A DNA stretch of 64,000 nucleotides, from positions 5,739-69,738 of the forward strand of contig CAZPLU010000007.1 in NCBI GenBank assembly GCA_964587625.1, in the 5' to 3' direction. The translations under genes were made by a program, and so were the position numbers. Positions within the stretch are counted from its first letter, which is position 1. The number at the start of each line of letters is the position of its first letter. Of the stretch, positions 5,895 to 10,586 are shown piece after piece. The notes below the pieces were generated by a model. That model was not told the origin of the DNA. It was given only the letters and a program-made list of their open reading frames with translations, and did not search any database. Origin of the DNA: an uncultured Eubacteriales bacterium. Its GTDB lineage: Bacteria; Bacillota; Clostridia; Oscillospirales; JAKOTC01.

Positions 5895-6351
5895 TTATTT
5901 CACCATCTCGTAAAATTCCGCCTCGGAAATGACCTTAACCCCCAATGCCCGCGCCTTGGTCAGCTTGCTCCCCGCGTCTTCGCCCGCAAGCACAAAATCG
6001 GTTTTTTTCGATACCGAAGAACCCGTTTTTCCGCCCGCGTCCTTGATCATCTGCTCGGCCTCGTCACGCGGAATCGACTGCGTTCCGGTCAGCACAAAGA
6101 CCTTGCCCTCGAGCGGCCCGCCGACCTTTTTTTCGGTCAGGCAGGTCATGTTGAGCCCCGCGGCTTTTAACTTATCGATCAAAGTGATGTTTACATCCTC
6201 CGAAAAATACGCTTTGACGCTCTCTGCGGTGATTGCCCCGACGCCCTCCACATGCGCAATCTCCTCAATAGCGGCGCTTTTCAACGCGTCCAGCGTGCCG
6301 AAATGCAGCGCCAGATCCGTCGCCGCCGTCTCGCCGACGTGCCGGATGCCG
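5895..6351 (-). pseudogene. ligA: Displaced 3'-terminal fragment of ligA (HhH/BRCT region, last ~150 codons)
   Basis: Positions 5899-6276 are identical (378 bp, manual alignment, offset 2688) to 8587-8964 of the intact ligA. Positions 6277-6351 have about 10 mismatches in 75 bp. Homology then stops. There are no upstream ligase domains. Confidence 0.85.
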
Positions 6352-6500
6352 GAGCGACTTGTCCGAAATCCGCACGGTGGGACTGTTATAATTTTTTTAA
6401 AACCCCGTTGCAATCGTCGCGGCGGGAGATGTACACTAATATTGTCAGCCGCGGACGGTTGACCACCGCGACTGATAATAATCGGGCAGGAGGGGAAAGG

Positions 6501-6626
6501 ATGGAAAACGGAATGTCCAACGATCAGCTTAACGCGCTGCTGGAAACCATCGCGAAACTCATTGAATCCAAAGCACATACCACTGCAGACGCCGCGCAGA
6601 TCGTGCGGGAAGCCAAGACAAAATAA
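6501..6626 (+). CDS. Small hypothetical protein (41 aa)
   Basis: ATG at 6501 preceded by aggagggg. It is the in-frame tail of track ORF 6252..6626. Sequence: MENGMSNDQLNALLETIAKLIESKAHTTADAAQIVREAKTK. Confidence 0.4.
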   Translation: MENGMSNDQLNALLETIAKLIESKAHTTADAAQIVREAKTK

Positions 6627-6756
6627 AATAGGCCGCTCCCCACCGACTAAGGCAAGAGCGACCTAAACCGCAAACGGGGCGTAAAGCCTGCCATTTACGC
6701 CCCTATCCTACCACATCAACGGCAGATAATCAAGAGATATTTTTAAGGAGAATATC

Positions 6757-6924
6757 ATGACATACAATGAAGCAATCGCAGCAGCCAGAGCGGCCACCAC
6801 CTACGCGGGGGTAGACGCGCTTTGCAAGACCATCGAAGAGGCCTACGACACCATCAGCGATCGCCAGTACTACAACGTGCGCAACATCGCCATCAATGCG
6901 GCATACGCAGCCGGAGCAAAGTAA
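6757..6924 (+). CDS. Small hypothetical protein (55 aa)
   Basis: Below the track size cutoff. ATG at 6757 is preceded by taaggag. Sequence: MTYNEAIAAARAATTYAGVDALCKTIEEAYDTISDRQYYNVRNIAINAAYAAGAK. Confidence 0.4.
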   Translation: MTYNEAIAAARAATTYAGVDALCKTIEEAYDTISDRQYYNVRNIAINAAYAAGAK

Positions 6925-6945
6925 AAGCCGCCAAGGAGGAATAAA

Positions 6946-7035: not shown

Positions 7036-7138
7036 TACCCCTCGCACTGGCGTTTCCAACGACCCGAATCGGCTATCCGAATGGAGGGCCGTTTATTTTT
7101 TTATCGGCTTGAACGGCATTTTTATATAAAATGATCTG

Positions 7139-7167
7139 TTGACAAAGAGTTTTTATTATGTTAATAT
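7139..7167 (+). promoter_or_regulatory. Candidate sigma-A promoter for the DUF4143 ATPase gene
   Basis: TTGACA (7139-7144), 17-nt spacer, TAATAT (7162-7167), in an AT-rich stretch. Confidence 0.4.
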
Positions 7168-7233
7168 AAAAACGTATTTTATATTTGCATAAAATACGCG
7201 AATTACATCCATCATATAAAGGGGTGAGGCCTT

Positions 7234-8496
7234 GTGTATATTACAAGAACTATCGAAAAAACCGCAATGACAATCAGCGAGACCTATCCTGTTCTTTTAA
7301 TCACCGGACCGCGGCAGGTGGGAAAAACCACGCTTTTGCAAAAACTTGCGTCGCCGGATCGAAAATATGTGACGCTCGATAATCCCACTTTTCGTGAAAT
7401 TGCCAATCACGAGCCGGAACTGTTTTTGCAACGGTTTTCCCCTCCCGTCATCATCGATGAAATTCAATACGCGGCAGGTCTTTTGGAATATATTAAAATC
7501 TATGTTGATACCCATAAAAATTGCGGTGATTTTTGGCTCACGGGCTCACAGGCCTTTCATATGATGAAAAAAGTCAGCGAAACCCTTGCGGGCAGAATAG
7601 GCATACTCCGCATAAACGGACTTTCAAACAGTGAAATCAACGGAAACCCCCTTCCGCCGTTTGAAATAAATCCCGACGCGCTCATCGGTCGGCTCAACAT
7701 CGCAAAAAGAATGACCATGCCGGAAATTTTTGAACGTATTTATAAGGGCTCAATGCCGCGTCTTTATGAAATGCCGCAAACCGATCGGGATGGGTATTAC
7801 GAATCTTATCTTGAAACCTATATCAGCCGGGACATCAAAGATTTGACGCAGGTTGCCGATGAGTTATCGTTCTTCAGGTTTGTCGGGATTGTAGCGGCCA
7901 GAACCGCTTCCAATGTCAATTATGATGCTTTGGCGAGTGAAACAGGCATCACCGCTCCCACCGCCAAACAATGGCTTTCCATATTGATATCCAGCGGCCT
8001 TGTTTTGCTCGTCGAGCCGTTTTTTAACAATGCTTTGAAACGAGTGGTTAAAGCGCCCAGAATGTATTTCCTCGATACCGGTTTATGCGCTTATCTCACG
8101 CGTTGGAATTCTCCCGAGGCATTGGAAGCCGGTGCCATGAGCGGTGCGTTTTTTGAAACATGGGTCGTATCGGAAATATACAAAAGTTATATCAATCACG
8201 GAAAGCGCCCCCCGCTGTATTTTTACCGCGACGGCAACAAAAAGGAAATCGATTTGATATTACAATACAACAACACGGTATATCCGATCGAAATTAAAAA
8301 AAGCGCCGCCCCGAAAGACGCCGTTAAAAGTTTTTCCGTGTTAAAACCAATTGAAAACGAGCCGTCGGAGGAGGACCGATTTTCGGGCGCTGCCCGTCTT
8401 AAAACGGTCATCGGAACCGGCGCGGTCATTTGCTTGGCATCGGATGTTTTGCCGATTGATCGTAAAAATTGGTATATTCCCGCGTGGTTGATTTGA
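7234..8496 (+). CDS. AAA+ ATPase, AAA_14/DUF4143 family, with PD-(D/E)xK-like C-terminal motif
   Basis: GTG start after ggggtgagg. Walker A is LLITGPRQVGKTTLLQ. The C-terminal KKEIDLIL...YPIEIKKS resembles a restriction-endonuclease-fold E-x-K motif. The overall layout is typical of DUF4143 proteins. Confidence 0.8.
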   Translation: MYITRTIEKTAMTISETYPVLLITGPRQVGKTTLLQKLASPDRKYVTLDNPTFREIANHEPELFLQRFSPPVIIDEIQYAAGLLEYIKIYVDTHKNCGDFWLTGSQAFHMMKKVSETLAGRIGILRINGLSNSEINGNPLPPFEINPDALIGRLNIAKRMTMPEIFERIYKGSMPRLYEMPQTDRDGYYESYLETYISRDIKDLTQVADELSFFRFVGIVAARTASNVNYDALASETGITAPTAKQWLSILISSGLVLLVEPFFNNALKRVVKAPRMYFLDTGLCAYLTRWNSPEALEAGAMSGAFFETWVVSEIYKSYINHGKRPPLYFYRDGNKKEIDLILQYNNTVYPIEIKKSAAPKDAVKSFSVLKPIENEPSEEDRFSGAARLKTVIGTGAVICLASDVLPIDRKNWYIPAWLI

Positions 8497-8582
8497 AAAC
8501 GAACGAGTTTGTCACCGCGATTGTTTAATGCAAACTGTGCGCCGCGCGCGACACATTCCCTCCTTTGAAAGGGGGAAAATCT

Positions 8583-10586
8583 TCACTTCACCATCTCGTA
8601 AAATTCCGCCTCGGAAATGACCTTAACCCCCAATGCCCGCGCCTTGGTCAGCTTGCTCCCCGCGTCTTCGCCCGCAAGCACAAAATCGGTTTTTTTCGAT
8701 ACCGAAGAACCCGTTTTTCCGCCCGCGTCCTTGATCATCTGCTCGGCCTCGTCACGCGGAATCGACTGCGTTCCGGTCAGCACAAAGACCTTGCCCTCGA
8801 GCGGCCCGCCGACCTTTTTTTCGGTCAGGCAGGTCATGTTGAGCCCCGCGGCTTTTAACTTATCGATCAAAGTGATGTTTACATCCTCCGAAAAATACGC
8901 TTTGACGCTCTCTGCGGTGATTGCCCCGACGCCCTCCACATGCGCAATCTCCTCAATAGCGGCGTTTTTCAGCGCGTCCAGCGTGCCGAAATGGAGCGCC
9001 AAATCTTCGGCCGCCGTCTCGCCGACATGCCGAATGCCGAGCCCCGAAATCAGCCGCCACAAGTCGTTTTTTTTGCTTTTATCCAGCGCGTCGAGGAGAT
9101 TTTGCGCCGATTTCTCGCCCTTTTTGTCGAGCGCGGCGATGTCTTCTTTTTGCAAGCCGTATAAATCGGCGGCGTCCCGAACCAGCCCTTTTTCGAGCAG
9201 CGTTTTTAACACTGCGGGGCCGAGCCCGTCGATGTCCATCGCCGATTTTCCGACAAAATGGGTCATTTCGCGGAACCGGATGGCCGGACAGGCCGGATTG
9301 CGGCAGCGAACCGCGGGGCCGTCCTCGTCCTTGATTACTTTACTGTTGCAAGAGGGGCACTCCTCCGGAATCCGATAGATCGGGTTTCCGCTTTTTTCGG
9401 CCACGCCGACCACCTCGGGGATGATGTCGCCCGCCTTGCGCACCTCAATAAAATCGCCGACGGCGACGCCCTTTTCGTCGATCATGTCCTGGTTGTGCAA
9501 CACCGCACGGCTGACCGTGGTTCCCGCAAGGGTCACCGGCTCAAACACCGCCGTCGGGGTCAGCACGCCCGTGCGCCCGACTTCGATTGAAATTTCGAGC
9601 AGTTTGGCGCGCTTGATTTCGGGCGGGTATTTATACGCGGCCGCCCAGCGCGGAAATTTTGAAGTGCTGCCCAGTTTTGCGCGGTCGGCCAGATCGTCGA
9701 GCTTGATGACCGCGCCGTCGATGTCGAATTGTAAATCATGGCGGATTCGGTTGATTTCCTCCACCCGCTCAATCAACTTGTCATAATCGGAAGACAGGAT
9801 GTATTTTGAGACGGGAAAGCCGAGTTTGCCCAAATAATCCAACGACGCGCTGTGCGTTTGAATCTCTTTGCCCCGAATTTGTTGAATATTGAACACGATC
9901 ACCGCCAAATGCCGCGTTTTGGTGATCTCGCTGTCCTTTTGGCGCAGCGATCCGGCGGCGGCGTTGCGCGGGTTTTTGAACGGGATATCGCCGTTTTCAT
10001 TTTGCGCGTCGACCAATTTGGCGAAGACGCTTTTGGGCATATAGACCTCGCCGCGCACCTCTAAAAATGCCGGCGCGTTTTTCAGCTTTTTCGGGATGGA
10101 TTCGATCGTCATCAGATTGGCGGTCACATCTTCGCCGGTTCTGCCGTCGCCCCGGGTCGAGCCGCGCACAAAAATGCCGTTTTCATACTCTAACGAAACC
10201 GAGAGCCCGTCGATCTTGGCCTCGACGACAAATTCGGCATTTGGTATAACCGCCTTCACCCGGTTCTCAAAATCTTTTAAATCCTCATAGGAAAACACAT
10301 CCTGCAAGCTCTCCATCGGCACAACATGCTCGACGGGCGAAAACAGCCCGGACGCCTTTCCGCCGATCTTCAAAAACGGTTCGAGTTCAAAACCCAACTC
10401 CGGGAACGTTTTGACAATCTCCCGCAGTTCTCGGGTTAAAGCGTCATATTCGAAATCCTCCAATGAGGGGTTGTCCCGGTCATGGTACTCCTCATTGGCC
10501 TTTTCAATTTGTCGTTTTAATAATTCGGCTCGCGCCTTTGCCTCACGAAACTCCACGTTCTCCCCCCGGATTCGCTTGAAAATCAT
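8583..10586 (-). CDS. ligA: NAD-dependent DNA ligase
   Basis: KIDG adenylation motif (EAKIDGLSV), Zn finger CPSC...CRNPACPA, HhH repeats and a C-terminal BRCT domain. The track ORF is trimmed to the ATG at 10586. A GTG at 10556 preceded by ggggggag is an alternative start. Either start overlaps the yunB stop at 10543. Confidence 0.9.

Follow-up and report, generated by a model that had tools for sequence, protein, structure and literature searches.

The 64,000-nucleotide (nt) stretch of DNA analyzed here (hereafter, the window) belongs to an uncultured Eubacteriales bacterium (assembly GCA_964587625.1, contig CAZPLU010000007.1, positions 5,739 to 69,738 of the forward strand). It carries an intact gene for the NAD-dependent DNA ligase, ligA, whose 3′ end occurs a second time as a detached fragment further downstream. 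The insert between the two copies, 2.2 kb in size, holds three small open reading frames (ORFs) and a gene for an ATPase with AAA_14 and DUF4143 domains (Table 1). Our analysis is based on the sequence of this one window and on database comparisons. The comparison of LigA placed the organism among uncultured Oscillospiraceae-like Clostridia; a LigA search of the GTDB genomes returned distant phyla only, and no close genome was found in that collection. Exact-protein look-ups gave no record for the 420-aa ATPase or the 667-aa LigA of the window and did return a 409-aa call of the same ATPase. An Rfam scan of the whole window matched no families.

Table 1. Features at the ligA locus of the window (L004 and L005 are contigs of the same species from other sequencing runs).
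Feature	Position	Strand	Basis or remark
Pal-A, orphan palindrome of the ATPase-operator type	5693..5736	.	77% identical to Pal-B
Native region 3′ of ligA, two hairpins, now beyond the orphan	5818..5894	-	near-identical in L004 and L005
Orphan ligA 3′ fragment, AAA-TAA end	5895..6351	-	HhH2 and BRCT only (Pfam)
Orphan/insert junction	6352..6376	.	two 8-nt matches to nearby ligA sequence
orf41, 41 aa, GGAG-type ribosome-binding site	6502..6626	+	ORF list
Hairpin after orf41	6672..6705		sequence
orf55, 55 aa, GGAG-type ribosome-binding site	6757..6924	+	small conserved protein family
orf29, 29 aa, GGAG-type ribosome-binding site	6946..7035	+	ORF list
Pal-B, overlapping the ATPase promoter TTGACA-17-TAATAT	7139..7194	+	best promoter-like site in the region (7139-7167)
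AAA_14 + DUF4143 ATPase, 420 aa, candidate PDC-S01	7234..8496	+	Pfam, PADLOC
Hairpin between the convergent ATPase and ligA	8557..8578	.	read from sequence
ligA (NAD-dependent DNA ligase), intact	8583..10586	-	all LigA Pfam domains
Repeat copy completing the intact ligA, AAG-TGA end	8583..9039	-	sequence comparison
Diverged tract inside ligA	8965..9486	-	522 bp, 85.4% identical to L004

An earlier note on this DNA, made from the sequence alone, had reported an identical run of 378 bp, about 10 mismatches in the next 75 bp and an abrupt end of the homology. Base-by-base comparison at an offset of 2688 bore this out: positions 5899-6276 are the same as 8587-8964 at 378/378 positions, and 6277-6351 differ from 8965-9039 at exactly 10 of 75 bp (6277, 6284, 6306, 6314, the four consecutive positions 6318-6321, 6339, and 6345). 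The identity breaks off at 5898/8586 on one side and at 6352/9040 on the other. A self-BLAST of the window recovered the repeat as 453 bp at 97.8% identity, and a repeat finder gave the same pair. The duplication is real and far exceeds what chance would produce. The Pfam domains likewise agreed with the note in assigning one copy to the end of a complete ligA and the other to an orphan BRCT/HhH fragment, and the ORF and domain searches found between them just what it had listed, namely three small ORFs preceded by ribosome-binding sites and a DUF4143 ATPase, with no recombinase.

The ORF of the intact ligA spans 8583-10703; its likely start at 10586 gives a protein of 667 aa, the same length as in the relatives. 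The repeat ends within the last sense codon of the gene, so that the intact copy closes with AAG TGA and the orphan with AAA TAA. The orphan fragment is contained in a 227-aa ORF (5895-6578) with no evident ribosome-binding site or promoter.

The DNA beyond the two ends also differs. Some 67-70 nt of native post-ligA DNA (5817-5883 or 5818-5884 of the window; 7568-7637 of contig L143) are ~87% conserved in the other species represented by L143, although the two species share only ~83% of their ligA DNA; this conserved two-hairpin stretch of ~70 nt is probably the native ligA terminator. The hairpin that now follows the intact gene (8557-8578) is absent downstream of ligA in L004, L143, L146, and L006, and it is the probable new ligA terminator, supplied by the insert. 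The suggestion of the earlier note that the insert carries a replacement 3′ end was thus upheld, with the last codon, the stop codon, and the terminator all differing. At the opposite end of the insert, the junction with the orphan holds CCGAAATC, which recurs at 9044-9051, and CGACTTGT, which is the reverse complement of 9059-9066. Each of these 8-nt matches was reached by ~3% of shuffles, and they are suggestive of a microhomology-based or templated junction.

Independent sequencing data bear on the reality of this arrangement. Short-read unitigs of two other runs (L008, L009, L012, and L013) are 100% identical to the window over 6247-8616 and 7172-8616, and the matching left-flank unitigs terminate at 5928. 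Every such unitig breaks off once it has entered the 378-bp repeat by 30 nt, which is the behaviour that a true repeat should show in a graph built with k=31. Both novel junctions, that between the last 75 bp of the orphan and the insert body and that between the body and the end of the repeat, were recovered at 100% identity in the independent runs; therefore, the physical linkage of a ligA fragment to the body is real. The earlier note had named misassembly as a possible source of the duplication. The unitigs answer this for the junctions, but they do not distinguish an integrated unit from a 2,688-bp circle, since the graph fits the order flank-repeat-body-repeat-ligA and, equally, an empty site accompanied by such a circle. 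The window itself was assembled straight across the repeat.

The note had also proposed to look for an empty site in close relatives, and such a site was found. The contigs L004 (12 kb) and L005, obtained from other runs, encode a LigA 96% identical to that of the window and are syntenic with it on both sides; they possess a single ligA end, which is followed after ~208 bp by a gene for a 207-aa protein. L004 and L005 represent the conspecific empty site, and the insertion at the ligA 3′ end in the window is genuine. We discarded the idea that a simple deletion in L004 gave rise to the difference, since the two ligA ends have neither their final codon nor their stop codon nor the DNA downstream of them in common.

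The same comparison reveals which of the two copies is the older resident. The AAA-TAA end of the orphan and the DNA downstream of it match L004 and L005, and wherever the two copies differ within the 75-bp segment (10 sites), the orphan agrees with L004 (75/75). The AAG-TGA end of the intact ligA runs into a different hairpin and then into the ATPase gene. By these matches, the orphan copy is the native allele, i.e., the displaced resident 3′ end. This corrects the earlier note, which had taken the diverged 75 bp to be plausibly of foreign-allele origin: they are not an element-borne allele residing in the orphan, and the divergent version lies in the intact gene.

There, it is the edge of a longer tract. 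The identity of the window to L004 is 99.3% over 9487-10586, 96.3% over the 378-bp repeat, and 85.4% over 8965-9486; across most of the length of 9500-13186, there are only 0-2 differences per 100 bp. The tract straddles the inner boundary of the repeat and extends 447 bp past the duplication, and 378 bp that match the orphan separate it from the insert. It is about as distant from L004 as other species are, and the protein that it encodes is equally distant from every known relative, with none closer, which points to an unsampled donor. Judged by its sequence, the tract is foreign and results from recombination at the interspecies level. Its crossing of the repeat boundary and its continuation for 447 bp more fit a homologous-recombination tract and not an attachment-site arm.

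The slot downstream of ligA differs among related species and is occupied by the 207-aa gene, by an acetyltransferase gene with a 193-aa gene, by oxidoreductase genes, or by SpoIIR. It is a variable slot and, apparently, a former home of an ATPase cassette (see below). In the window, the 207-aa gene of this slot (5064-5687) has a low GC content (0.37) and a predicted N-terminal membrane segment, and no family was assigned to it in Pfam, PHROGs, or NCBIfam.

The cargo of the insert combines genes of different character. No family in Pfam, PHROGs, or NCBIfam was found for orf41, nor any relatives, and the Pfam, PHROGs/NCBIfam, and homologue searches gave no relatives of orf29. The family of orf55 was represented by 14 representative clusters in one search and by 37 clusters in another, and the contigs that carry its homologues (L094-L098; L099-L101 from IMG/VR) also contain genes for portal, capsid, and terminase proteins. 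Judging from these contigs, orf55 belongs to a family of conserved phage genes without an assigned function. In the phage contigs (L094, 8973-10174; L095, 5859-7307; L100, 7998-9204), the gene is either divergent from a small serine recombinase gene or directly upstream of that for the small terminase subunit; the contigs with a serine recombinase gene beside orf55 also carry portal and capsid genes.

The ATPase is assigned with high significance by Pfam (E-values of 6e-28 and 2e-41 for AAA_14 and DUF4143) and by the PADLOC profile PDC-S01 (E=4.9e-97). PDC-S01 is a PADLOC candidate single-gene system in which an ATPase is fused to a PD-(D/E)XK domain; it is among the commonest candidate defence genes of prokaryotes, and the experimental validation of most such candidates is pending (PMC12988326). 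DUF4143 has been placed in the PD-(D/E)XK superfamily (PMC3424549). The window ATPase has the PDC-S01 architecture, with a P-loop ATPase at the N terminus and a DUF4143 domain fused to it at the C terminus, and resembles PDC-S01 also in the strong profile match and in the conserved catalytic-type residues: the Walker A motif, D75/E76, and D340...E353-x-K355 are invariant or near-invariant in 26 homologues. We regard it as a candidate anti-phage defence gene, with a putative defence activity. An AlphaFold model built with 26 close homologues reached a mean predicted local distance difference test (pLDDT) score of 53, with values below 50 in the C-terminal domain; a PDB sequence search gave no matches, and PHROGs and NCBIfam returned nothing for this protein.

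Homologues of the ATPase with 65-89% identity number in the thousands across Clostridia. In 80 metagenome and 41 genome loci, the nucleotide homology to the window was limited to ~7155-8498, that is, to the ORF and ~80 nt upstream. Thus, the search for copies of the insert elsewhere, suggested in the earlier note, was successful for its parts, with the ATPase in ~120 loci and orf55 in phage contigs, but the parts never occurred together with a ligA fragment or with an integrase beside ligA. Neither the ligA fragment nor the combination of ATPase and orf55 was found in the ~120 ATPase loci or in the orf55 phage contigs; a nucleotide search with 6352-7233 against phage and plasmid collections gave no match, and a 32-nt stretch of the ATPase-ligA spacer had no exact match in the GTDB genomes. 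Beyond the window, the insert body turned up solely in two other runs, from the same strain. The domain search detected neither a recombinase nor a transposase in any ORF of the insert; the syntenic flanks and 20 additional ORFs screened in the window likewise yielded no recombinase.

The upstream part shared by the ATPase loci contains a conserved regulatory-type element. Within the family, a promoter of the form TTGACA-N17-TA(A/T)ACT is overlapped by a palindrome, ATGCwAAwnTAAA-N7-TTTAGATTTGCAT, which precedes the start codon by 50-60 nt in the majority of the 37 ATPase loci examined. Since the palindrome lies 5′ of the gene and overlaps the -10 box, it looks like a promoter/operator, and we infer an operator role, possibly autoregulatory. 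As far as could be found, this promoter-palindrome of PDC-S01 has apparently not been described before. Examples outside the window occur at 5925-5961 of L014 and 1554-1590 of L019, and the element is kept down to ~65% protein identity.

In addition to Pal-B in front of the ATPase, the 64-kb window contains only one other such site, Pal-A. This palindrome is located in the native spacer just past the 207-aa gene, ~160 bp from the ligA end, in the filled and the empty (L004) strains alike. A blastx search found no ATPase remnant in the native spacer, so that Pal-A stands alone; it is apparently the relic of an older ATPase cassette. The palindrome was also considered as the recombination site of the ligA event and was rejected in this role, because Pal-A also exists in L004, between the same two flanking sequences.

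Duplicated sequences around the same kind of ATPase gene were found at other loci. In L018, the order is a first palindrome, an internally deleted ATPase gene, an orphan 3′ end of a convergent gene X, ~155 bp of further sequence, a second palindrome, a full ATPase gene, and the intact 3′ end of X. One unit is 88-89% identical to the other. L043 and L126 have an intact ORF161, ORF237, the palindrome with the ATPase gene, and an orphan piece from the 3′ end of ORF161 (54 aa, 162 bp, 91%). A 71-bp terminator hairpin is duplicated around the ATPase cassette in L117, and an 86-bp piece of a neighbouring exonuclease gene in L106. Among the 39 genome loci with long flanks, six direct-repeat pairs in five loci bracket the ATPase, whereas 0.85 would be predicted from where all the repeat pairs lie; for the informative metagenome loci, a rough hand estimate from the listed pairs gave ~4 bracketing pairs vs. 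~1 expected. The repeats in this enrichment count measure 53-162 bp, and the duplicated sequences as a whole, the ligA repeat included, differ in kind and length (53-453 bp). Because other loci duplicate other genes around the same cassette, ligA is not a specific target; the earlier note had called it an unusual integration target. The cassettes of L018 (2942-4995) and L043 (4597-7600, the same as in L126) stand beside genes for AAA_21 (AbiEii/OLD-like) ATPases.

Based on these results, we favour, with modest confidence, a scenario in which an accessory unit was acquired by homologous recombination through the ligA 3′ end into the variable slot, with no need for a dedicated integrase. Of the insertion into the ligA 3′ end postulated by the earlier note, the insertion itself is established by the empty sites in L004 and L005, but an element that targets ligA is not the explanation that we prefer. 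The incoming unit would have consisted of a ligA 3′ segment ending in AAG-TGA, the hairpin, the PDC-S01 ATPase with its own promoter-operator, and the three small ORFs. It might have entered as a ~2.69-kb circle by a single-crossover (Campbell-type) insertion-duplication or, alternatively, as linear DNA that was anchored in ligA at one end and joined illegitimately at the other. In either case, the ligA segment of the unit would now complete the essential gene, and the resident end (AAA-TAA with the native terminator) would have been pushed 2.7 kb downstream, where it would remain as a silent orphan beside Pal-A. The ligA repeat sequence is the species' own (96% to L004) and not a diverged element-borne version.

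The 522-bp tract would be a second trace of foreign recombination, either co-imported with the unit or imported separately. The distribution of alleles would require no gene conversion if closely related donor and recipient strains shared the 378 bp and one of them carried the tract; alternatively, the tract could have been imported later, in which case the import had to end inside ligA because the homology stops at the insert. The perfect repeats of 378 bp would allow RecA to pop the unit out again as a circle, which would explain the existence of filled and empty strains within one species. L004 itself lacks the tract and hence is not a direct excision product.

Several points weigh against this scenario. 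A donor arrangement, with the AAG-TGA ligA end and this ATPase but no orphan, was not found, and the circular intermediate is hypothetical. A perfect 378-bp stretch beside a tract that is 13-15% diverged calls for two events or for closely related donor and recipient. The microhomology at the junction, matched by chance as often as stated above, is weak evidence. The enrichment of repeats was assessed without a control gene family, and among the flanking repeats are some that are hairpins or resemble repetitive extragenic palindromic (REP) elements (L045, L128, and L117). Finally, orf55 is phage-derived, which may indicate a decayed prophage or satellite, and an integrase could act in trans from elsewhere in the genome, of which the 64-kb window was seen.

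These last points lead to the view that the insert is the remnant of a site-specific element (a decayed prophage, a satellite, or an element like the cis-mobilizable elements, CIMEs) that targeted the ligA 3′ end and whose integrase has been deleted or is provided in trans. We consider this unlikely, with several points in its favour: the architecture fits, with the gene completed by insert-borne sequence and the orphan native end lying downstream, an empty site exists within the same species, and the occurrence of the orf55 family in phage contigs, together with the ability of integrases to act in trans, keeps such an element in play. Against it stand the absence of an integrase from all ORFs screened, a repeat of 453 bp (378 of them identical), which is far longer than integrase cores and has no recognisable short core, and the origin of the insert-borne ligA segment, which is the species' own sequence and not a travelled allele. 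Moreover, the diverged tract continues past the repeat, a scan of viral contigs found no close relative of the ligA C-terminal segment, orf55 never occurs beside a ligA fragment in the phage contigs, and the same ATPase is flanked by other duplicated genes at other loci. The element is not recurrent, and no integrase-bearing relatives at ligA were found in other genomes. It may also be that DUF4143/PDC-S01 genes are self-contained mobile cassettes of promoter-palindrome and gene, which spread without a classical recombinase and of which the ligA locus would be one fresh example. The ATPase-nuclease might then break DNA beside resident copies or palindromes, and insertion through homology or microhomology would create target duplications of 53-453 bp and leave relic palindromes and orphan gene ends as footprints. 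We hold this to be improbable.

The topology and the origin of the repeat raise two further alternatives. The chromosome could have a single ligA end, with the 2.69-kb unit existing as a separate circle or belonging to a co-assembled strain; the breaks of all short-read unitigs 30 nt into the repeat are compatible with either form. We give this very little credence, given the recovery of both novel junctions at 100% identity in independent runs and an assembly that passes straight through the repeat. A circle would, in addition, still be an excised form of the same element, and since the unit has no replication gene recognized by Pfam, it would hardly have persisted in three samples as a plasmid. 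The succession of Pal-A with a ligA 3′ end and of Pal-B with the ATPase and another ligA 3′ end, as well as the similar appearance of two tandem units in L018, might instead suggest a local tandem duplication of promoter, ATPase, and ligA 3′ end, in which one copy decayed or was replaced and nothing foreign was inserted. This, too, is very improbable, and slightly more so in our opinion. Nothing but the ligA segment and the 44-bp palindrome (77%) is common to both units, the spacer 5737-5894 and the segment 8497-8582 are unrelated, and the stop codons differ; with almost nothing shared beyond the ligA segment, a pure tandem duplication is unlikely. Furthermore, the left unit has the layout of the empty site and is partly conserved in another species, so it represents the ancestral state and not a decayed duplicate.

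The homologous-recombination scenario has parallels among known processes. In Campbell-type insertion-duplication, a circular DNA is integrated by a single homologous crossover, as with suicide plasmids. In both cases, exactly two direct copies of the homology flank the insert, and the event is reversible by recombination between them; at the ligA locus, the source of a natural 2.69-kb circle is hypothetical. That the segment of homology stops exactly at the final codon of ligA implies that an intact ligA was selected for. Integrative elements that replace the 3′ ends of protein-coding genes include phage 21 and e14 in icd and the integrative and conjugative elements ICESt1 and ICESt3 in fda, and their integrase-less derivatives are the CIMEs. 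The ligA locus shares with them an insert-borne 3′ end that keeps the gene intact, a flanking direct duplication, and empty sites in relatives, but differs in that its screened ORFs yielded no integrase, its repeat far exceeds the typical cores in length, the 3′ end brought by the insert is the species' own sequence, the body is non-recurrent, and other genes are duplicated around the cargo elsewhere. The gene cassettes of integrons are single-gene units with an imperfect palindrome that occur in many genomic contexts. The ATPase cassette is similar in combining a single gene with a palindrome in many contexts; unlike integron cassettes, it is accompanied by neither an integron integrase nor attI, and the insertion point in the window is not at the palindrome.

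The closest analogy is provided by the rhs, CDI (contact-dependent growth inhibition), and type VI secretion system (T6SS) effector-immunity loci, in which C-terminal (3′-end) displacement gives rise to arrays of orphans (Kirchberger et al., 2017, PMC5361080). This displacement has been proposed to proceed via homology-facilitated illegitimate recombination (PMC5361080, citing Jackson et al., 2009; Prudhomme et al., 2002; de Vries and Wackernagel, 2002). In those loci and, on our reading, also in the ligA locus, a conserved part of a gene serves as a homologous anchor without an integrase, a new 3′ end is inserted with a new downstream module, the old 3′ end and the old downstream DNA are kept distally as orphans, and the conserved gene is a mosaic with foreign tracts; at ligA, 378 bp lie between the tract and the insert, so that the two may or may not have come in together. 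The ligA locus differs in its anchor, which is an essential housekeeping gene with an unchanged product and not a polymorphic toxin gene, in the near-identity of the new and old ends, in the presence of only one displaced end, and in its cargo, a candidate defence ATPase instead of an effector-immunity pair. The process is best read as homology-anchored 3′-end displacement, already known, which would operate here with a different anchor and cargo.

Some other features of the window, outside the ligA locus, were recorded. An intergenic tandem repeat at 34098-34569 comprises 2.5 copies of a 187-bp unit that are 99% identical, and an inverted 116-bp relative of it (79%) is located 31 kb away, at 3087-3202, between genes for proteins of 608 and 591 aa. 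Two tandem paralogues with a PBP_like_2 domain (24085-26619 and 26647-29229; 844 and 860 aa) are 78% identical overall, with a 975-bp stretch of 94.6% identity that suggests gene conversion. On the minus strand, a gene of low GC content (0.45) at 61561-62733 encodes a protein with DUF6933 and PRiA4_ORF3 (plasmid pRiA4b ORF-3-like) domains and may be another acquired gene. Also on the minus strand, a 490-aa protein with a condensation domain, resembling nonribosomal peptide synthetases, adjoins a 1203-aa ORF (48988-54064), and a 1417-aa ORF spans 38863-43116.

In conclusion, the ligA locus indicates that an essential housekeeping gene can be an undamaged landing pad for accessory, probably defence-related DNA without an integrase. 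The footprints left here, namely the orphan 3′ end, the relic operator, and the foreign tract within the gene, may be used for spotting such events elsewhere, and they carry a lesson for annotation, since the 227-aa ORF is no gene but the displaced end of one. For PDC-S01, the promoter-plus-gene cassette, the conserved palindromic operator, and the above-chance bracketing by direct repeats provide leads on the regulation and spread of this family.

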